25,263 nucleotides of DNA. It comes from Halobacteriaceae archaeon (lineage in GTDB: Archaea; Halobacteriota; Halobacteria; Halobacteriales; Halobacteriaceae). The notes below the pieces were generated by a model. The model saw only the letters and a list, made by a program, of their open reading frames with translations. It was not told the origin of the DNA and searched no databases. Below are positions 18,649-25,263 of this stretch, one piece after another. The position numbers and the translations under genes were made by a program. The DNA lies in NCBI GenBank assembly GCA_042216675.1, contig JBDGTS010000014.1, positions 27,592 through 52,854 on the forward strand. Direction: 5' to 3'. Within the stretch, counting starts at the first letter, position 1, and every line of letters begins with the position of its first letter.

Positions 18649-19551
18649 ATGAGCGAGGCGACCGACCTTGAGGAACTCCGTCGGGGCACCGAACTCGTCA
18701 AGCGCGGGTTCGCGCAGATGCAGAAGGGCGGCGTCATCATGGACGTGGTGAACGCCGAGCAAGCCAAAATCGCCGAGGAAGTCGGCGCCGTCGCGGTGAT
18801 GGCCCTCGAAGCCGTGCCCGCGGACATCCGTAAGCGCGGGGGCGTGGCGCGAATGGCAGACCCCGCCGACGTGCAGGAAATCATCGACGCCGTCTCCATC
18901 CCGGTGATGGGCAAGTCCCGCATCGGCCACCGGAAGGAGGCCGAGATTCTGGAGGCCATCGGCGTCGACATGATCGACGAGTCCGAGGTGCTGACGCCCG
19001 CGGACGACCAGTACCACATCGACAAGCGGGAGTTCACCGCGCCGTTCGTCTGCGGCGCACGGAACCTCGGCGAGGCGCTCCGGCGCATCGACGAGGGCGC
19101 CGCGATGATTCGCACGAAGGGCGAGGCCGGCACCGGCGACGTGAATCAGGCCGTCTTCCACCAGCGCACCATCAAGGGCGCCATCCGAACGCTGGAGGGC
19201 ATGAACTACGAGGAGCGCGAGAAGTGGGCGCGCGAGAACGAGGCGCCCGCCGAACTCGTCCACGAGACGGCAGAGCGCGGCCGCCTCCCCGTCGTCAACT
19301 TCGCCGCGGGCGGCATCGCGACGCCCGCCGACGCGGCCCTGATGATGTACCACGAGTGCGACGGCATCTTCGTCGGGTCCGGCATCTTCGGCGCGGAGGA
19401 CCCCGAGACGATGGGCCGCGCCGTCGTCGACGCCGTCAACAACTGGGACGACCCCGAGCGCCTCGCCGAAATCGCGTCGAACGTCGGCAAGGGCATGAAG
19501 GGTGAGGCGGACGTCGCCGAGGAGGAGGAACTGCAGGGCCGCGGCGTCTAA
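18649..19551 (+). CDS. pdxS: pyridoxal 5'-phosphate synthase lyase subunit
   Basis: [39 protein letters not shown] and [14 protein letters not shown]. Confidence 0.97.
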
Positions 19552-19910
19552 GTCTTCTCGCGCCTGTAGAACCCGGCGACGAACTCGTATGTCAGCAGGC
19601 CGCCGACGAGGAGCCCCAAGAACGCGGCCACGGCGGCCCGCCCCTGCTCCGTCGTCTCCATCGAGGGCGACATCGCGAGCGCCGCGAGATAGCCCGTGAC
19701 GAACACGCCGGTTCGGACGCGGAGGCGCACGCCCGTCGCGGCGTCGACGGCGGCGAGATACAGCTGCGGGCCGATGCCCGTCGCGACCGTCGCGAGCAGG
19801 TAGATGCCGAGTCCCGAGAGAGACTCCAGTCCGCGGACCCCCGCCGCGACGAAACACGCGGCTCCGACGAGGAACCCGACGCCGAGGGTGGCGTTCTCGC
19901 GGGAGACCAT
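19548..19910 (-). CDS. hypothetical membrane protein (about 4 TM)
   Basis: Hydrophobic 120-aa ORF filling the gap between pdxS and the leuA promoter; converges on pdxS with a 4-nt overlap. Confidence 0.65.
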
Positions 19911-19982
19911 GCGCCGCGCTTTTCCATCGTTTCAGATAATCGTTTGGTTGTCGCCCGAGCGCCGGGCGGCGCTACGGACAGG

Positions 19983-19988
19983 CTTAAG
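19983..19988 (+). promoter_or_regulatory. TATA box of leuA
   Basis: CTTAAG, 28-33 nt upstream of ATG 20016. Confidence 0.65.
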
Positions 19989-20015
19989 TGTTCGGCCGGC
20001 CCACCGTAGGGTACA

Positions 20016-20087
20016 ATGTCGTCTCACGACGACCCCGGTGCAAGTCCGGGGGACCGAGTTCTTCAAGGGCACGTTAGCCCAGCGTAG
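20016..20087 (+). promoter_or_regulatory. leaderless uORF overlapping the leuA 5' end (MSSHDDPGASPGDRVLQGHVSPA*); candidate +1 frameshift leader
   Basis: ATG at the expected transcript start but out of frame with LeuA; hairpin CCCCGG/CCGGGG (20033-20051); single Leu codon CTT at 20061-20063. Confidence 0.6.
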
Positions 20088-21225
20088 CGAGATCGACGAG
20101 GCACGCATCTTCGACACCACGCTCCGCGACGGGGAGCAGTCGCCACGCACGTCGTTCAGTTACGACGACAAGCGCGAGATAGCCGCGACGCTCGACGACA
20201 TGGGCACCCACGTCATCGAGGCTGGGTTCCCGGTCAACAGCGACGCCGAGTTCGAGGCGGTGCGCGACATCGCCGAGAGCACGACGTCCGACGTCTGCGG
20301 TCTCGCGCGCGTCGTCGAGGAGGACATCGAGGCGGCACTCGATGCGAACGTGGACATCGTCCACGTCTTCTCCTCCACCAGCGACGTGCAGATCGAAGAC
20401 TCGATGCACGCGACCCGCGAGGAGGTACTGGAACGGTCGGTCGAGGCGGTCGAACGCGTCAAATCGGCGGGCGTGGAGTGCATGTACTCGCCGATGGACG
20501 CGACCCGCACGGACCACGACTTCCTGCTGGAGGTCGTGGAGGCCGTCACCGAGGCGGGGACCGACTGGATAAACATCCCGGACACCTGCGGGGTGGCGAC
20601 GCCGACGAGGTTTGGCAGCCTCATCGGCGAGCTCGTCGAGCACACGGACGCGAAGATAGACGTCCACACGCACGACGACTTCGGACTCGCGACTGCGAAC
20701 GCGCTGGCCGGCTTCGAGAACGGCGCGGCGCAGGCACAGGTGAGCGTCAACGGCATCGGCGAACGCGCCGGCAACGCGGCTTACGAGGAGGTCGTGATGT
20801 CAGCGGAGTCGCTGTACGGCGTCGACACCGGCATCGACACCACTGGCATCACGGAACTGGCGCGGATGATCGAGGAGAAGTCCGACATCCGCGTGCCCGC
20901 GAACAAGCCCGTCGTGGGGCGCAACGCGTTCTCCCACGAGAGCGGCATCCACGCCGCGGGCGTCATCGAGAACTCCGAGACGTTCGAGCCCGGCGTGATG
21001 ACTCCCGAGATGGTCGGGGCGTCCCGCGAACTCGTGTTGGGCAAGCACACGGGGACTCACTCCGTGCGCGAGCGCCTCATCGACGCTGGCTTCGACCCGA
21101 CCCCCGAGGAGGTCCGAGAGGTCACCCGGCGCGTGAAGGACTACGGCGCGGAGAAGAACCGCGTCACGATGTCCGACCTCGAACGGTTCGCGCGGGAGAC
21201 TGGCATCGAGGAGGTTCAGGCCTGA
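20038..21225 (+). CDS. leuA: 2-isopropylmalate synthase, short form (start uncertain: in-frame GTG 20038, or ATG 20016 with a +1 frameshift)
   Basis: IFDTTLRDGEQ, IEAGFP, PDTCG, HTHDDFGLA.AN, NGIGERAGNA and HESGIH; sits in the ilv/leu cluster. About 395 aa, with no C-terminal regulatory domain. Confidence 0.88.
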   Translation: MQVRGTEFFKGTLAQRSEIDEARIFDTTLRDGEQSPRTSFSYDDKREIAATLDDMGTHVIEAGFPVNSDAEFEAVRDIAESTTSDVCGLARVVEEDIEAALDANVDIVHVFSSTSDVQIEDSMHATREEVLERSVEAVERVKSAGVECMYSPMDATRTDHDFLLEVVEAVTEAGTDWINIPDTCGVATPTRFGSLIGELVEHTDAKIDVHTHDDFGLATANALAGFENGAAQAQVSVNGIGERAGNAAYEEVVMSAESLYGVDTGIDTTGITELARMIEEKSDIRVPANKPVVGRNAFSHESGIHAAGVIENSETFEPGVMTPEMVGASRELVLGKHTGTHSVRERLIDAGFDPTPEEVREVTRRVKDYGAEKNRVTMSDLERFARETGIEEVQA

Positions 21226-21263
21226 TGCCCGTCCCCGCGTTCGCCCTCACCGGACAGCCACGG

Positions 21264-21284
21264 GGCCGTCGCTCCGCGGCGGCC
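21264..21284 (+). other. hairpin in the leuA 3' region
   Basis: GGCCGTCGC-TCC-GCGGCGGCC, a 9-bp stem with one G-U pair; function unknown. Confidence 0.35.
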
Positions 21285-21290
21285 AGCAAG

Positions 21291-21296
21291 ATTTAT
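21291..21296 (+). promoter_or_regulatory. TATA box of the ilvB operon leader
   Basis: ATTTAT preceded by purine-rich CAAG, about 29-34 nt upstream of ATG 21325. Confidence 0.65.
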
Positions 21297-21324
21297 GATT
21301 GGTCGTCCCGTCAGTCGGACGTAC

Positions 21325-21399
21325 ATGCTGGAGACGCGCCCGGCGCACGGTCGACCGACCGCCGCCAGCGCCGCGGCCGTCGTACTCGTAGGGGCGTAA
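21325..21399 (+). CDS. putative ilvB leader peptide (MLETRPAHGRPTAASAAAVVLVGA*)
   Basis: Leaderless-position ATG; GTC-GTA-CTC-GTA Val/Leu codon cluster; TAA forms the loop of the GGGGCG/CGCCCC hairpin. Confidence 0.6.
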   Translation: MLETRPAHGRPTAASAAAVVLVGA

Positions 21400-21420
21400 C
21401 GCCCCGCACAGTTCCTTCTC
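21391..21420 (+). terminator. candidate attenuator hairpin with pyrimidine tract
   Basis: GGGGCG-TAA-CGCCCC (21391-21405) followed by TTCCTTCTC (21412-21420). Confidence 0.4.
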
Positions 21421-21506
21421 CATCGAGTCCGTGCACGACTGTCCAGCGAGGGCCGCCGCACAGCGGCCACCGACTCCACAGATGACACACGCGAAACCCC
21501 ACAATC

Positions 21507-21513
21507 GAGGTGA
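21507..21513 (+). promoter_or_regulatory. Shine-Dalgarno of ilvB
   Basis: GAGGTGA, 6 nt before GTG 21520. Confidence 0.7.
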
Positions 21514-21519
21514 TCGGCG

Positions 21520-23271
21520 GTGAGCGAAACGCCGAGCCAACGGCTGACCGAGGACGAACAGGACGAGAAGCGACCCGTCTCGACGGGCGCGGAGTCCGTC
21601 GTGCGAGCGCTGGAGAACGCGGGCGTCGAGACGCTCTTCGGCGTCACCGGCGGCGCCATCATGCCCGTCTACGACGCGCTGTACGATTCGGAGATGACCC
21701 ACGTCACGATGGGCCACGAGCAGGGCGCCGCCCACGCCGCCGACGCGTACGGCGTCGTCAGCGGCGACCCCGGCGTCTGTCTCGCCACCTCGGGTCCCGG
21801 CGCGACGAACCTCGTGACTGGCATCGCCGACGCCGACATGGACTCGGACCCGCTCATCGCGCTGACCGGGCAGGTGCCGACGTCGATGGTCGGCAACGAC
21901 GCCTTCCAGGAGACGGACACCACCGGCGTCACCGCGCCCGTCACGAAGGCGAACTTCTTCGCACAGGACCCCGACTCCGTCGGTGATGACGTGGGCACCG
22001 CGTTCGCCCTCGCGAGCGAGGGCCGGCAGGGGCCGACGCTCGTCGACCTGCCGAAGGACGTGACCCAAGGCGACGCGGAGCGAGAGCCCGCGCCGGCCGA
22101 GGCCCCCGAGACCCACGACCCCGAAGAGCGGGCCGACGAGGAGAACGTCGCCGAGGCCGCCGAGGCGCTGTCGAACGCCGAGCGCCCGGTCATCCTCGCC
22201 GGCGGCGGAGTCATCAAGGCCAACGCCAGCCCCGAACTCCGGGCGTTCGCCCGCGAGTACGAGATTCCGGTCGTCACGACGATGCCCGGGCTGGGCTCGT
22301 TCCCCGAGGACGACGACCTGTCGCTTGGCTTCGCGGGGATGCACGGCACCGGCTACGCCAACATGGCGGTCACCCACACCGACGTGATGCTGGCCGTGGG
22401 CACCCGCTTCGACGACCGACTCACCGGCGGCGTGGACTCCTTCGCGCCCGAGGCGGAGGTCATCCACGTCGACATCGACCCCGCCGAAATCTCGAAGAAC
22501 ATCCACGCGGACTACCCACTCGTCGGCGACGCCGAGTTCGTCCTCGACCAACTGTACGAGGCGATGCCGAGCGAACCGCCCGCCGACGAGTGGCGCGCGC
22601 AGTGTCAGACGTGGAAGGCCGAGTACCCGATGGACTACGAGACGCCCGAGGACGAACCCCTCAAGCCGGAGTTCGTCGTCGAGGCGTTCGACGAGGCTAC
22701 CGACCCCGACACTATCGTCACCACCGGCGTCGGCCAACACCAGATGTGGGCCTGCCAGTACTGGGAGTACACGGAGCCCCGGACGTGGGTCTCCTCGCAC
22801 GGACTAGGCACGATGGGCTACGGCCTGCCCGCGGCCATCGGCGCGCGCTTCGCCGCCGACGAGGAGCAAGACGTCGTCGCCTTCGAGGGAGACGGCTCCC
22901 TGCTGATGACCGTCGAGGAACTGGCCGTCGCGGTCCGCGAGGACCTCGATCTCACCGTCGCCGTCCTCAACAACGAGTACGTCGGGATGGTCCGACAGTG
23001 GCAGGACGGCTTCTACGAGGGTCGCCACATGGCCTCTGAGTACGCGTGGTGTCCCGACTTCGCGAAACTCGCCGAAGCCTTCGGCGCGCAGGGCCTCACC
23101 GTCGACGACTACGACGGGGTGCCCGACGCCATCGAGGCCGCCCTCGACTACGACGGGCCGACGGTCATCGACTTCCACGTCGACCCGCAGGAGAACGTCT
23201 TCCCGATGGTGCCGAGCGGCGGGAAGAACGGACTGTTCGCGATGAACGCCGAGCAACTGGAGCAACTGTAA
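21520..23271 (+). CDS. ilvB: acetolactate synthase large subunit
   Basis: HEQGA, TSGPGATN, GMHG, RFDDR, VGQHQMW, GLGTMGYGLP and the TPP motif GDGS...NN. Confidence 0.96.
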   Translation: MSETPSQRLTEDEQDEKRPVSTGAESVVRALENAGVETLFGVTGGAIMPVYDALYDSEMTHVTMGHEQGAAHAADAYGVVSGDPGVCLATSGPGATNLVTGIADADMDSDPLIALTGQVPTSMVGNDAFQETDTTGVTAPVTKANFFAQDPDSVGDDVGTAFALASEGRQGPTLVDLPKDVTQGDAEREPAPAEAPETHDPEERADEENVAEAAEALSNAERPVILAGGGVIKANASPELRAFAREYEIPVVTTMPGLGSFPEDDDLSLGFAGMHGTGYANMAVTHTDVMLAVGTRFDDRLTGGVDSFAPEAEVIHVDIDPAEISKNIHADYPLVGDAEFVLDQLYEAMPSEPPADEWRAQCQTWKAEYPMDYETPEDEPLKPEFVVEAFDEATDPDTIVTTGVGQHQMWACQYWEYTEPRTWVSSHGLGTMGYGLPAAIGARFAADEEQDVVAFEGDGSLLMTVEELAVAVREDLDLTVAVLNNEYVGMVRQWQDGFYEGRHMASEYAWCPDFAKLAEAFGAQGLTVDDYDGVPDAIEAALDYDGPTVIDFHVDPQENVFPMVPSGGKNGLFAMNAEQLEQL

Positions 23272-23273
23272 CC

Positions 23274-23864
23274 ATGGCTGGAGGACTCGAAGGACCCGCG
23301 CCGGACGAGCGCCCCCACCCCGAGGGGCGACGCAACGAACAGGGCATTCGAATCGAACAGGAGTCGGCGGAACCGCCGACCCACCGCGCCGTGCTGTCGG
23401 CGCAGGTGTGGCACGAACCGGGCGTGCTCGCGAAGGTGTCGGGGCTGTTCAGCCGACGCCAGTTCAACATCGAGAGTCTGGCGGTCGGCCCCACCGAGCG
23501 AGAGGGAGTCGCCCGCATCACGATGGTCATCGAGGAACACGACCCGGGCATCGAGCAGGCCAAGAAGCAACTGGAGAAGCTCGTCCCCGTCATCTCCGTG
23601 CGCGAACTCCGCGAGGAGGCCGTCGAGCGCGAACTGGCGATGGTGAAACTCGACGTGCGCGACGACCCGGACGAGGTGCAGGCCGTCGCGGAGATGTGCG
23701 ACGGCGACGTCGTGGACATCGGCCCCGAGACCATCACCGTCGAGTTGACGGGCACGGAGGCACAGATCGACGCCGCGCTGGAGACCTTCGAGCGCTTTAC
23801 AGTGCGTGAGGTAGTGCGGACAGGTACGGCGGCACTCGCAAGCGGTGCCGAGGAGACCACATGA
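23274..23864 (+). CDS. ilvN: acetolactate synthase small regulatory subunit
   Basis: ACT domain PGVLAKVSGLFSRRQFNIESL, KQLEKL and EVVRTG; ATG 2 nt after the ilvB stop. Confidence 0.94.
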   Translation: MAGGLEGPAPDERPHPEGRRNEQGIRIEQESAEPPTHRAVLSAQVWHEPGVLAKVSGLFSRRQFNIESLAVGPTEREGVARITMVIEEHDPGIEQAKKQLEKLVPVISVRELREEAVERELAMVKLDVRDDPDEVQAVAEMCDGDVVDIGPETITVELTGTEAQIDAALETFERFTVREVVRTGTAALASGAEETT

Positions 23865-24913
23865 CCGACAACAATCAGTTCACCACACCGGTATACTACG
23901 AGGACGACCCGGACCGAAGCTACATCGACGAGAAGACCGTCGCCGTCATCGGCTACGGCAGTCAGGGCCACGCCCACGCGCTGAACCTCCACGAGAGTGG
24001 AGTCGAGGTCGTCGTGGGCCTGCGCGAGGGGTCGTCCTCGCGCGAACAGGCGGAAGCCGACGGCCTGCGCGTCGCGGCCCCCGACGACGCCGCGGCCGAG
24101 GCCGACGTGGTGATGGTCCTCGTCCCCGACAACGTTCAGCCCGCGGTGTTCGAGGCGCTGGAGCCCGAACTCGACGAGGGCGACACCGTGATGTTCGCGC
24201 ACGGCTTCAACATCCACTACAACCAGATCGAACCCCCGGAGCACGTCGACGTGACGATGGTCGCGCCGAAGGGGCCCGGCCACATCGTCCGCCGCGACTA
24301 CGAGCGCGGCGAGGGGACGCCCGCGCTCGTCGCCGTCTACCGCGACCGGACCGGCGAGGCCAAGCAGGAAGCGCTGGCGTACGCCCACGCCATCGGCGCG
24401 GCCCGCGCGGGCATCGTCGAGACGAGCTTTCAGGAGGAGGTCGAGACCGACCTGTTCGGCGAGCAGGCCGTCCTCTGTGGCGGCGTCACGAGCCTCATCA
24501 AGCACGGCTTCGAGACGCTCGTGGACGCCGGGTACGCTCCCGAGATGGCGTACTTCGAGTGCATGAACGAGCTGAAGCTCATCGTCGACCTGCTCTACGA
24601 GGGCGGGCTGGGCTACATGTGGTACTCCGTCTCGGACACCGCCGAGTACGGTGGCCTCTCGACGCAGGACGACATCGTGGACGAGACGGTTCGCGAGAAC
24701 ATGGAGGAGCAGTTAGAGCGCGTCCAGAACGGCGAGTTCGCGCGCGAGTGGATCTCCGAGAATCAGGCCGGTCGCCCGGCCTACACGCAGTACAAGGCAC
24801 AGGAAGCCGACCACCAGATCGAGGACGTCGGCGCCCGCCTGCGCGACCTGTTCGCGTGGGAGGAGTCCGAGGTCCCCGAGGAGGCGAAACCGGAGGCGCC
24901 CGCGGATGACTGA
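23861..24913 (+). CDS. ilvC: ketol-acid reductoisomerase
   Basis: IGYGSQGHAHA, FAHGFNIH, APKGPGH, ETDLFGEQAVLCGG and SDTAEYG. Confidence 0.97.
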   Translation: MTDNNQFTTPVYYEDDPDRSYIDEKTVAVIGYGSQGHAHALNLHESGVEVVVGLREGSSSREQAEADGLRVAAPDDAAAEADVVMVLVPDNVQPAVFEALEPELDEGDTVMFAHGFNIHYNQIEPPEHVDVTMVAPKGPGHIVRRDYERGEGTPALVAVYRDRTGEAKQEALAYAHAIGAARAGIVETSFQEEVETDLFGEQAVLCGGVTSLIKHGFETLVDAGYAPEMAYFECMNELKLIVDLLYEGGLGYMWYSVSDTAEYGGLSTQDDIVDETVRENMEEQLERVQNGEFAREWISENQAGRPAYTQYKAQEADHQIEDVGARLRDLFAWEESEVPEEAKPEAPADD

Positions 24914-24925
24914 GGTGACACATCG

Positions 24926-25263
24926 ATGAGCGAGGGCACGCTGTACGACAAGGTCTGGGACCAGCACAAGGTCACGACCCTGCCGAACGGGCAGGACCAG
25001 CTGTTCGTCGGCCTCCACCTCATCCACGAGGTCACCAGCCCGCAGGCGTTCGGGATGCTCAAGGAGCGCGATATGGACGTCGCGTACCCCGAGTTGACCC
25101 ACGCCACCGTGGACCACATCGTCCCGACGGCCGACCAGTCGCGTCCCTTCGGGGACGACGCGGCCGAGGAGATGATGAGCGAACTCGAACAGAACGTCCG
25201 CGACGCGGGCATCGAGTTCGACGACCCCACCAGCGGCGATCAGGGCATCGTCCACGTCATCGG
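24926..25263 (+). CDS. leuC: 3-isopropylmalate dehydratase large subunit (5' part, runs off the window; not in the ORF track)
   Basis: [14 protein letters not shown]...[13 protein letters not shown]...ATVDHIVPT...QGIVHVI; SD GAGGTGA at 24912-24918. Confidence 0.95.

Follow-up and report, generated by a model that had tools for sequence, protein, structure and literature searches.

In bacteria, leader-peptide attenuation is a textbook mechanism that relies on the coupling of transcription to translation. In the enterobacterial leaders ivbL (of ilvBN), ilvL (of ilvGMEDA) and leuL, runs of Val, Leu and Ile codons gauge charged tRNA and set the read-through into the genes that follow, within a four-segment architecture (1:2, 2:3 and 3:4) that also includes Shine-Dalgarno (SD)-dependent initiation and a long U tract. 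Aminoacyl-tRNA synthetase genes of bacteria are likewise controlled from their leaders, as in the pheST attenuator of Escherichia coli and the T-boxes of valS and ileS in Firmicutes. In Corynebacterium glutamicum, to go by the title of one study, a leader peptide is reportedly formed without a ribosome-binding site. In Mycobacterium tuberculosis, an abundant transcript of ~120 nt ends within the 166-nt leader of ilvB1, whose regulatory codons encode LVVI and for which a figure legend names GUA as the regulatory codon (PMC13236596). Every member of the Corynebacterium motif has an in-frame start and stop and encodes a peptide enriched in branched-chain amino acids, according to the excerpted text of PMC10272879. 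Finally, the excerpt of bioRxiv 10.1101/834739 describes a mycobacterial polycysteine upstream ORF (uORF), a leaderless short ORF that is the first cistron of the operon transcript and acts as an amino-acid-responsive attenuator.

For Archaea, our full-text literature search found no paper describing amino-acid-sensing leader peptides, and direct functional evidence for archaeal transcription-translation coupling is still scarce, according to the accessible part of a 2025 perspective (PMC13681488). In Haloferax volcanii, long 5′ UTRs contain uORFs of 15-31 codons upstream of the gene for tryptophan-tRNA ligase and of pheS (Babski et al. 2016, PMC4983044, Table 2). These uORFs match the kind of leader that stands before trpS in the genome studied here; the table gives no function, cognate codons or hairpins and does not include ilvB or valS, and the underlying filter retained acidic peptides only, whereas the ilvB leader peptides described below are basic. 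The main texts of the Haloferax dRNA-seq, Ribo-seq and small-proteome papers mention neither ilvB, nor its leader peptide, nor attenuation, and their supplementary tables may hold data; a paper on the sRNAs of Haloferax mediterranei names ilvB solely as a predicted target.

We analysed a stretch of 25,263 nucleotides from a Halobacteriaceae archaeon (hereafter the window), in which an earlier note had proposed a bacterial-style leader peptide and attenuator upstream of an ilvBNC-leuC operon. The features of the locus are as follows, with the identities of the genes (2-isopropylmalate/citramalate synthase-like, ilvB, ilvN, ilvC and leuC) assigned via NCBIfam.

19804..21225, + strand: 2-isopropylmalate/citramalate synthase-like gene, upstream of ilvB (NCBIfam)
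21283..21298, + strand: BRE/TATA promoter of the leader, CCAGCAAGATTTATGA (consensus over 131 leaders)
21325..21399, + strand: uORF1, the leader ORF, 24 codons plus TAA, MLETRPAHGRPTAASAAAVVLVGA then stop (sequence and ORF listing)
21379..21390, + strand: codon cluster GTC GTA CTC GTA, Val-Val-Leu-Val (read from the sequence)
21391..21405, + strand: GGGGCG-TAA-CGCCCC hairpin, its loop formed by the stop codon (from the fold); the predicted lower stem extends to 21385-21413
21406..21422, + strand: pyrimidine-rich tract after the hairpin, a candidate pause or termination signal, with TTCCTTCTCC at 21412-21421
21482..21523, + strand: uORF2, MTHAKPHNRGDRR then stop, its TGA overlapping the GTG start of ilvB (GTGA)
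21507..21514, + strand: SD-like GAGGTGAT, 5 nt upstream of the ilvB GTG (read from the sequence)
21520..23271, + strand: ilvB, acetolactate synthase large subunit (TIGR00118, 695.8 bits, above the curated cut-off)
23274..23864, + strand: ilvN, acetolactate synthase small subunit (NF008864/TIGR00119, above cut-off; ATG at 23274)
23861..24913, + strand: ilvC, ketol-acid reductoisomerase (NF004017, 529 bits)
24926..25263, + strand: 5′ part of leuC (NF004016 match, N-terminal 112 residues); the gene continues past the window

The anatomy described in the earlier note is present in the sequence, element by element. Its TATA element, ATTTAT, is located at 21291-21296; the ORF of 24 amino acids that it had opened at ATG 21325 ends in TAA at 21397-21399; the Val-Val-Leu-Val cluster with two rare GTA codons directly precedes a perfect stem of 6 bp (GGGGCG at 21391-21396 and CGCCCC at 21400-21405, TAA in the loop), which the MFE and centroid folds both contain; the tract that it had reported follows the hairpin; and 120 nt separate the uORF1 stop from the ilvB start, which is preceded by the SD-like sequence. 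Between the stop codon of the leuA-like (2-isopropylmalate/citramalate synthase-like) gene at 21225 and the ilvB GTG at 21520, we read a gap of 294 nt. The leuC score falls below its full-length cut-off because the gene is truncated at the window edge. For the leuA-like ORF (473 residues), the NCBIfam alignments start at residues 93-101 and every score lies below the equivalog cut-offs; a TATA-like GCTTAAG is found ~30 nt upstream of an ATG at 20016, and the true start of this gene is probably near 20016-20039, as judged from the sequence. An in-frame version of uORF1 with 34 codons, from ATG 21295, also appears in the ORF listing. Neither this version nor the overlapping ORFs that we tested (two on the minus strand and one in an alternative frame of the plus strand) had a match in Pfam.

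The alignment of ilvB leaders across Halobacteria that the earlier note had proposed as a check recovered the promoter-proximal ATG, the Ile, Val and Leu codons before the stop and the GGGGC-stop-GCCCC hairpin. The layout is present in all 30 of the relatives' loci first fetched, each of which also has a 2-isopropylmalate/citramalate synthase-like gene upstream of ilvB, in 79 of 80 named haloarchaeal loci, and in 131 distinct leaders overall, a recurrence that is not due to chance. A covariance model (R1), which has a single match in the window's own genome, matched 119 of 151 sampled genomes of the class, representing 47 of 58 genera. Of its 121 matches, 116 lie in the leuA-ilvB gap and the other 5 lie before valS, and nine of the ten R1-negative genomes that we inspected still carry the element. 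The element is conserved over four haloarchaeal families, which include many culturable strains, and R1 matched none of 132 genomes outside the window's order (Halobacteria). Haloferax volcanii, one of the control genomes, yielded no locus in which to look for the element. A cmscan of positions 20900-21800 against Rfam 15, with E-values up to 10, found no relevant family, T-boxes and the bacterial Leu, Thr, His and Trp leaders included; the sole match, cow-rumen-1 on the minus strand inside ilvB, is at chance level (13.7 bits against a gathering threshold of 53.4).

An archaeal BRE/TATA promoter with a start codon ~32 nt downstream is found in all 131 distinct leuA-ilvB spacers of the sampled Halobacteria. 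The promoter consensus, C.CGaAAgggTTATaa, occupies positions -42 to -27 relative to the ATG (A at -36 and T at -29, each in 91%), and the distance from the first T of the TATA to the start codon is 32 nt in 111 of 130 leaders. This spacing implies that the transcript begins at the ATG or 1-3 nt before it, that is, the leader mRNA is probably leaderless, with ATG 21325 as its first codon. All 131 leaders have an in-frame start codon (127 ATG, 4 GTG), and their ORFs range from 19 to 62 codons. When the start was picked from the promoter alone, it was in frame with the terminal GTA in 124 of 130 leaders, which have 19 distinct lengths; the ATGs within 130 nt upstream of the hairpin are distributed over the three frames as 169, 15 and 14. 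Conservation of the encoded peptides is restricted to the last 4-6 residues, the N-terminal part being unconserved and basic (net charge +1.95 on average and above zero in 103 of 131). By its position and frame, the previously unannotated uORF1 appears to be a translatable short ORF in the 5′ leader of the operon, as is expected of an attenuator.

The end of uORF1 is distinguished by its codons. GTA accounts for 5 of 180 Val codons (2.8%) in five neighbouring genes, and ATT for 5% of the Ile codons in neighbouring genes; the last Val of the leader is GTA in 131 of 131 cases, and the codon immediately 5′ of it is Ile in 124 (ATT in 96, ATC in 28). The window's own leader has Leu CTC at this position, a rarer variant found in 3 of 131 leaders. 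Over all 131, Ile, Leu and Val make up 63% of the last six codons versus 14% of the N-terminal part, and Ile alone accounts for 26% of the end codons; the ilvB leaders are therefore enriched in codons for the end-product amino acids of the pathway, another expected mark of an attenuator. The 9 nt upstream of GGGG contain 12.8 bits of information versus 4.9 bits in the 9 nt downstream of CCCC, and TAC, the complement of GTA, follows the CCCC run in just 50 leaders. Because of this asymmetry and the small number of GTA/TAC pairs, 5′-side conservation is not explained by pairing. In the second codon upstream of GTA, the third base is T regardless of the amino acid (ATT, GGT, CGT), which points to some constraint at the nucleotide level. 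We ruled out a TATA box formed by the ATTATTGTA stretch, since GC-rich codons (CTCGTA) occur there in the window and in other leaders.

The hairpin was found in 130 of 131 leaders, with 102 distinct sequences and loops of 3-16 nt, and in 126 of these 130 the stop codon falls wholly or partly within the loop. Covariation on the model-made alignment was not significant (105 of 500 shuffles reached the observed value) because the hairpin core, GGGGC/GCCCC, is nearly invariant and shifted 3′ arms were not brought back into register in this alignment. In a half-swap energy test used instead, none of 200 permuted pairings of 5′ and 3′ halves folded as well as the native ones. Taken as a whole, the 206-nt leader shows no unusual degree of structure (z = -0.49). 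Downstream of the hairpin, the first 13 nt contain a mean of 0.53 G versus 2.97 in a control window, and they are free of G in 80 of 130 leaders versus 2 of 130 in the control. TT followed by C occurs after the hairpin in 115 of 130 leaders (median start +8); the longest T run within 30 nt is 2 in 74 of 130 and at least 3 in 47 of 130, mostly in the form of TT and then C. In the window, TTCCTTCTCC starts 7 nt past the core stem, in a pattern that resembles the Haloferax termination motif. As set out in the accessible part of Berkemer et al. 2020 (PMC7237163), intergenic termination sites of Haloferax have a stretch of T residues with a final C, and a hairpin frequently stands no more than 10 nt upstream; hairpins precede 503 termination sites, and a single hairpin by itself brought about the termination of 59% of transcripts in vivo. 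Archaeal intrinsic termination normally requires longer T runs, according to the same text, and by its composition the T tract of the ilvB leaders is weak and falls short of T5C, an efficient terminator in Haloferax.

Downstream of the hairpin, 104 of 131 leaders have an ATG ORF of 7-52 codons that terminates on the start codon of ilvB, and the ATGs in the 120 nt upstream of ilvB are distributed over the frames as 103, 17 and 4. No TATA signal was found upstream of uORF2 or ilvB in this interval of the leaders; with no second promoter downstream of the hairpin, ilvB transcripts from the leader promoter must traverse the hairpin and the tract. We rejected a translational switch via RNA refolding, given that predicted accessibility did not change consistently under a simulated ribosome footprint: with the footprint at the Val codon, it changed by +0.013 at the uORF2 start and +0.021 at the ilvB start, rising in 25 and 37 of 103 leaders, respectively. 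The 5′ arm of the hairpin has a predicted unpaired probability of just 0.054 in the free leader. No alternative antiterminator helix, which an attenuator would be expected to have, was seen in these folds, where forcing the footprint to be single-stranded barely altered the downstream pairing.

The same hairpin and a uORF stand before valS in 17 of 30 fetched valS loci, and four further R1 matches bring these leaders to 21. Their last six codons include 47 Val and 0 Ile among 126, and the presence of Val without Ile codons argues that the codons are decoded and are not merely an RNA motif. The valS leaders share the hairpin and a T-rich tract with the ilvB leaders, and one that we read through (L097) has no ATG from the hairpin to valS. 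A second type of valS leader, also present in the window's genome, has a uORF of 9-11 codons with GTA GTA in 14 of 16 genomes. Before trpS, the window's genome has a 24-codon uORF with TGG CGG TGG, its stop in a hairpin loop, followed by T5C. In the trpS leader and in valS leaders of the second type, the cognate codons are retained but the hairpins are different ones. The IleRS-like and LeuRS-like genes of this genome have short upstream gaps with no visible leader, and pheS (TIGR00468) was not found in the genome, which is 80% complete. A de novo scan of the genome for a TATA, an ATG, a short ORF, a hairpin and a G-poor tract gave 28 candidates, the ilvB and valS leaders among them; the others were noisy.

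How might such a leader work? We consider it probable that the leader of ilvBNC-leuC is a ribosome-mediated attenuator sensing Ile and Val, and perhaps Leu; from the sequences we infer translation, stalling, termination at the tract, the direction of regulation and the response to amino acids. In the proposed mechanism, the archaeal promoter would fire a probably leaderless transcript, and ribosomes would translate the 24-codon uORF1 from ATG 21325, in which the branched-chain codons adjoin the 5′ arm of a GC hairpin with the stop codon in its loop. The terminal GTA is expected to be readable in the window's genome by tRNA-Val(UAC) only. When charged Ile- and Val-tRNAs are plentiful, the ribosome would reach the stop codon and leave, and the hairpin would form during the passage of RNA polymerase over the G-free C/U tract, 6-16 nt further downstream; transcription would then end at the tract, either intrinsically or with the aid of the termination factor FttA/aCPSF1. 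When charged tRNA is scarce, the ribosome would stall with ATT, CTC or GTA in its A site and its footprint would cover the 5′ arm, so that no hairpin could form and the polymerase would continue into uORF2 and ilvBNC-leuC. The earlier note had suggested such occlusion by a stalled ribosome, and the geometry fits, since the Ile and Val codons abut or form the 5′ arm. Direct occlusion of this arm would thus stand in for an antiterminator. A ribosome at the stop codon would mask the hairpin too; therefore, the switch would have to be kinetic, between release and stall.

The description of this leader as bacterial-style in the earlier note holds for the regulatory logic but not for the architecture, which comprises an archaeal promoter, a probably leaderless mRNA, a short T tract and no antiterminator helix. 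With the enterobacterial ivbL, ilvL and leuL leaders, it would share branched-chain codons that set read-through into biosynthesis genes; those leaders differ in their four-segment architecture, SD-dependent initiation and long U tract. Like the actinobacterial ilvB attenuators (the M. tuberculosis ilvB1 uORF; the Corynebacterium ilvBNC leader and ilvB-II motif), it has a short uORF rich in branched-chain codons in a long ilvB leader, followed by a hairpin and a pyrimidine/U tract. In the actinobacterial attenuators, however, antiterminator and terminator helices exclude each other and the intrinsic terminator is a bacterial one, whereas in the haloarchaeal leader a single hairpin was found, the proposed sensing codons are part of its 5′ arm or lie directly against it, the stop is in the loop, and the BRE/TATA, the polymerase and the termination machinery are archaeal. 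We found no sequence or Rfam relationship between the two groups of ilvB leaders. The mycobacterial polycysteine attenuator resembles the proposed haloarchaeal one in being a short ORF, leaderless there and probably so here, that opens the operon transcript, and it differs in being bacterial and sensing cysteine. The haloarchaeal valS (GTA, GTT) and trpS (two Trp codons) leaders are like bacterial synthetase leaders in the proposed sensing of cognate codons upstream of the gene; unlike the T-box, they have no tRNA-binding RNA architecture, and sensing would be through the ribosome.

Could the same anatomy serve another purpose? It is possible, though unlikely, that uORF1 is the sensor but that, rather than bringing about premature termination, the stalled ribosome or the hairpin acts on how stable the mRNA is or how it is processed, or on translation of uORF2 and ilvB; for example, either could control the arrival of ribosomes at uORF2, itself coupled to the ilvB start by an ATGA/GTGA overlap. 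The frequency with which uORF2 ends on the ilvB start, the frame bias of the ATGs before ilvB, and a T tract shorter than archaeal intrinsic termination normally wants (PMC7237163, in its accessible part) are in keeping with such an output. Against it, the simulated footprint hardly shifts the predicted accessibility of either start, and the sharing of hairpin and tract by the valS leaders, one of which (L097) lacks any ATG before valS, indicates that the conserved module consists of uORF1, hairpin and tract. That uORF1, hairpin and T tract are instead a stand-alone small gene beside ilvB, encoding a micro-protein or a small RNA with its own terminator, we regard as very improbable: the element does have its own promoter and a terminator-like end, and small leaderless genes are common in haloarchaea (PMC4983044), but apart from its last residues the peptide is not conserved, and its basic character sets it apart from the acidic proteins typical of haloarchaea, low isoelectric point being used as a mark of real small proteins in that study. 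Moreover, every R1 match is tied to ilvB or valS, and no promoter separates the element from ilvB.

In Firmicutes, ilvB and valS are typical T-box targets, and the UAUUGUAGGGGC...GCCCC sequence might be an RNA hairpin that a protein recognises, or a T-box-like specifier that shows GUA to tRNA, the reading frame being incidental. Invariant synonymous positions (GTA, GGG and the T before ATT) and the occurrence of the same hairpin upstream of both genes would suit this explanation, which nevertheless seems quite improbable to us, given that the frame from the promoter-fixed ATG is kept across so many ORF lengths, that the stop codon remains in the loop whatever the loop size, and that the codons switch with the regulated gene, Ile being frequent before ilvB and absent before valS. 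In addition, cognate codons persist alongside different hairpins in the trpS leader and the second valS type, and no Rfam family, T-box included, was matched. An inverted repeat with a nearly invariant core also brings to mind a DNA operator, at which a transcription factor (e.g., of the Lrp type) would block elongation or a downstream promoter. We give this hardly any credence: dimer operators do not usually have a spacer between the arms that ranges over 3-16 nt, the two sides of the lower stem change together (no shuffled pairing out of 200 does as well as the native halves), and the in-frame ATG, the stop codon in the loop and the gene-matched codons would be left unexplained.

Returning to the attenuator that we favour, we lean, if only slightly, towards a broader proposal: that Halobacteria possess a class of attenuators in which leaderless mini-ORFs end in rare cognate codons against a stop-in-loop hairpin (Ile/Val for ilvBNC, the Val codon GUA for valS, Trp for trpS), and in which the leading ribosome would decide by direct occlusion whether a weak C/U tract halts the polymerase, perhaps with the participation of FttA/aCPSF1. 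The gene-matched versions of the leader before ilvB, valS and trpS are open to simple genetic tests. If the proposal is true, it would represent the first ribosome-mediated transcription attenuation to be demonstrated in Archaea and a natural reporter of archaeal transcription-translation coupling. It would also offer a handle on archaeal termination, whether hairpin-assisted or FttA-dependent, and small amino-acid-responsive parts for haloarchaeal engineering. As a functional counterpart of the bacterial T-box and leader-peptide regulons, it would show how archaea may tune amino-acid biosynthesis and tRNA charging without T-boxes.

The window carries pdxS, a 2-isopropylmalate/citramalate synthase-like gene, ilvB, ilvN, ilvC and the start of leuC (NCBIfam assignments). 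Between the stop codon of the synthase gene (21225) and the GTG start codon of ilvB (21520) lies a spacer of 294 nt, in which the following features were located.

21291-21296, + strand: TATA-like ATTTAT
21325, + strand: ATG start codon of uORF1, the 24-codon leader ORF, opening MLETRPAHGRPTAASAAAVVLVGA before its stop
21379-21390, + strand: Val-Val-Leu-Val codons GTC GTA CTC GTA
21391-21405, + strand: hairpin GGGGCG/CGCCCC, a perfect stem with a 3-nt loop formed by the TAA stop codon (minimum free energy and centroid folds)
21412-21421, + strand: tract TTCCTTCTCC
5 nt 5′ of the ilvB start, + strand: GAGGTGAT
21482-21523, + strand: uORF2, a second ORF reading MTHAKPHNRGDRR, with its TGA overlapping the ilvB GTG

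Thus every sequence detail described in the earlier note (the TATA element, the ATG-initiated ORF, the codon cluster, the stem with a stop codon in its loop, the tract and the SD sequence) is present at this locus. GTA is indeed rare, accounting for 5 of 180 Val codons in five neighbouring genes, in which ATT accounts for 4 of 78 Ile codons.

The earlier note had proposed an alignment of haloarchaeal ilvB leaders, and in the 131 distinct spacers between the synthase gene and ilvB that were compared across sampled Halobacteria, the ATG, the branched-chain amino acid codons before the stop and the hairpin all recur. The hairpin is found in 130 of the 131 leaders (102 distinct sequences), with loops of 3-16 nt and a mean energy of -14.2 kcal/mol, and in 126 of these 130 the stop codon falls wholly or partly in the loop. 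In 200 of 200 permutations, the native 5′ and 3′ halves formed more stable hairpins than did shuffled pairings; ordinary pair counts show no covariation for the hairpin, because its core is so invariant. The 9 nt 5′ of GGGG hold 12.8 bits of information, compared with 4.9 bits in the 9 nt 3′ of CCCC, and only in 50 leaders does GTA lie opposite TAC, its complement, so that the conservation of ATT-GTA cannot be put down to pairing alone. Beyond the hairpin, the first 13 nt contain a mean of 0.53 G residues (2.97 in a control window) and none at all in 80 of 130 leaders (2 of 130 in the control). TT followed by C occurs in the tract of 115 of 130 leaders, starting at a median of 8 nt past the hairpin, and the longest T run reaches at least 3 in 47 of 130 (control, 3 of 130).

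Is uORF1 a translated frame? Its openness is weak evidence, because the DNA is GC-rich and another frame is equally open. An in-frame start codon is nevertheless present in all 131 leaders (127 ATG, 4 GTG), and within 130 nt 5′ of the hairpin the ATG counts by frame are 169, 15 and 14. The promoter consensus C.CGaAAgggTTATaa is located at -42 to -27 from the start codon, with the first T of the TATA box exactly 32 nt 5′ of the start in 111 of 130 leaders; judged by what is known of haloarchaeal promoters, this spacing is as expected for a leaderless mRNA. When the start was picked from promoter position only, ignoring frame (130 leaders, one having no start within range), it shared the frame of the conserved GTA in 124, was in frame +2 in six and never in frame +1; in the six frame +2 leaders, a second ATG 2-11 nt 3′ is the in-frame one. 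The distance from ATG to GTA takes 19 different values with the frame kept, which indicates that length changes came in whole codons.

The encoded peptides (19-62 codons, the bulk 24-28) begin with an unconserved, basic part rich in Ala, Arg, Thr and Ser, the net charge of which averages +1.95 and is positive in 103 of 131 leaders; haloarchaeal proteins are typically acidic. The last Val codon is GTA in all 131. The codon 5′ of it encodes Ile in 124 (ATT 96, ATC 28), and in the others Leu CTC (3, including the window), Val (1) or Arg (3, all from the variant genus described below). Ile, Leu and Val together make up 63% of the last six codons as against 14% earlier in uORF1, and Ile alone 26% as against 1.5%.

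Among related genomes, ilvB is present in 41 of 41, and in all 30 fetched loci the same synthase gene precedes it across a spacer of 213-822 nt in which a small ATG-initiated ORF runs into a GC hairpin. The peptide ends in ...[I/L/V][I/V]-V-G-A in 27 of the 30; the remaining three (L016, L017 and L019) represent one genus of the window's family and carry a one-base insertion, GTACGGGCC...GGCCC. In this variant genus, the peptide ends in IRVRAA(P/M)AH, the stop codon falls 3 nt past the hairpin, outside the loop, and the fourth stem pair has changed from G-C to C-G. Of the named relatives, those nearest to the window are Halobacteriaceae MAGs, with an IlvB identity of approximately 80%. A covariance model, R1, built from the hairpin with its flanks, gave a single match in the window's own genome and 121 matches spread over 119 of the 151 class genomes sampled (47 of 58 genera); in 116 of the 121 loci, all of which were fetched, the match lies in the synthase-ilvB gap. 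No match was obtained in 132 genomes from other families of the phylum, and inside the order 15 of 18 genomes matched. Inspection by eye of ten R1-negative genomes revealed the element in nine. The tenth (G035, from another family of the order; locus L233) has a synthase-ilvB gap of just 42 nt, from which the leader is absent. The element also occurs in 79 of 80 named loci, the 80th having no upstream sequence; named carriers include Haloarcula, Natrinema, Halomicrobium, Halobellus, Natronomonas, Natronorubrum, Halopiger and Salinigranum.

All five R1 matches away from ilvB (L097, L119, L131, L139 and L142) lie upstream of valS (best NF009687, TIGR00422). Among the best 30 valS loci from 61 genomes (L239-L268), 17, from other haloarchaeal families, have a GTAGGGGC...GCCCC hairpin before valS like that at ilvB; in each of them, an ATG close to the promoter opens a uORF of 16-33 codons, and a tract of the TTTCGAC type is present. 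In these 17 leaders and four further R1 matches, Val occupies 47 of the last 126 codons (six per leader; GTA 31, GTT 11), Leu 6 and Ile none. A second type of ValRS, that of the window's family, is preceded in 14 of 16 genomes by a putative leaderless uORF of 9-11 codons, M..(A/S)VVR.., with GTA GTA CGT. Both genomes of the genus of G035 also lack the short valS uORF (L270 and L273). In the window's own genome, two such leaders were located.

Contig C25, approximately 1585-1553, - strand: valS leader, with TATA and a 10-codon uORF, MSVMLSVVRR and stop (GTA GTA)
Contig C38, 20846-20920, + strand: leader of a trpS-like gene, with TATA and a 24-codon promoter-proximal uORF, MESTSGWRWPHGSEVDSVAVPAGG and stop

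The TAG stop of the former is the loop of GTCGG/CCGAC, followed by CCTTCCTC; the latter contains two Trp codons and has its TGA within the loop of a hairpin, which is followed by GCTTTTTCC. It agrees with the uORFs tabulated before trpS and pheS in Haloferax (PMC4983044, Table 2). A de novo genome scan also found, on contig C24 (25046-25075, + strand), a 9-codon promoter-proximal ORF, MRRASSSIR, with three consecutive Ser codons and a hairpin at its stop. Comparison of the ilvB, valS and trpS leaders indicates that codon content tracks the regulated gene (Ile and Val, Val alone, Trp) while the architecture stays constant. Such gene-matched codons are what decoding by a ribosome would predict, and not what a protein- or tRNA-binding hairpin would.

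How might such a leader act? The Ile and Val codons adjoin or make up the 5′ arm of the hairpin, which in the free leader is predicted to be paired with a probability of 0.95. A ribosome's footprint extends approximately 12-15 nt downstream, and it would lie over GGGGC when the A site holds ATT or GTA. The 32 tRNA genes found in the window's own genome (80% complete) include one each for tRNA-Val(UAC), tRNA-Val(CAC) and tRNA-Ile(GAU), and GUA decoding there presumably rests on the lone UAC tRNA-Val. Work on M. tuberculosis assumes a ribosome footprint of 26 nt (PMC13236596). The T-rich part of the tract starts 6-11 nt past the hairpin, approximately where the active site of the polymerase would stand once the hairpin just clears the exit channel. 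Intergenic 3′ ends reported for Haloferax show a T stretch ending in C, with hairpins at most 10 nt upstream of 503 sites, and in a reporter one hairpin sufficed on its own to terminate 59% of transcripts (PMC7237163). FttA/aCPSF1, described as preferring U-rich nascent RNA (PMC13681488), might make up for the lack of a strong T run, and its access could be barred by a stalled ribosome. We favour premature termination over a translational switch, because no promoter was found between the hairpin and ilvB and a simulated ribosome stall opened neither the uORF2 nor the ilvB start site in predicted pairings. The termination model has a weakness: a ribosome that has reached the stop codon also masks the hairpin, so that discrimination between stall and release must be kinetic. 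The sequence comparisons support the reading of the earlier note, that of an attenuator, with stalling and termination as its presumed steps.

An ATG-initiated ORF ending on the ilvB start, as uORF2 does, is present in 104 of 131 leaders (7-52 codons, median 18), starting 53-208 nt past the uORF1 stop and overlapping ilvB by ATGA or GTGA in 95. Within 120 nt 5′ of ilvB, ATGs number 103, 17 and 4 by frame. The peptides are unconserved and rich in Arg, Thr, Pro and His; their Thr richness may be mere AC-rich composition. The surrounding sequence is C/A-rich, and neither a TATA box nor an SD sequence was found for uORF2. It probably passes ribosomes to ilvB by termination-reinitiation, as a coupled cistron. 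Farther upstream, the synthase-like ORF (19804-20090 region, + strand) probably has its true start well 3′ of 19804, since the family models align with it only from residues 93-101 on. An ATG at 20016 (+ strand) has a TATA-like GCTTAAG approximately 30 nt 5′ of it and begins a 23-codon ORF, which runs in a different frame and overlaps a possible GTG start at 20039; a minus-strand ORF of 120 codons (19548-19910) has no Pfam match.

Among known systems, the actinobacterial ilvB leaders and the enterobacterial ivbL/ilvL leaders come closest. With the bacterial ilvB leaders, such as the actinobacterial ones (PMC13236596, PMC10272879), the haloarchaeal leader shares its length, a short ORF rich in branched-chain amino acid codons, and a hairpin accompanied by a pyrimidine tract; in M. 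tuberculosis, GUA is even the codon named as regulatory (PMC13236596). Unlike them, it has an archaeal promoter with probably leaderless initiation, one hairpin and no antiterminator, sensing codons within the 5′ arm with a stop codon in the loop, a weak T tract, and a polymerase and termination factors that are archaeal. The leader has no match in Rfam, a full-text literature search found no account of such leaders in archaea, and ilvB is absent from the main text of the Haloferax start-site, Ribo-seq and small-proteome papers. The design would be leader-peptide attenuation transferred to the machinery of archaea, with occlusion as a simpler principle. The element is of high interest, since it occurs widely, has codons that match the gene behind it and lends itself to ready tests in haloarchaea that can be cultured.
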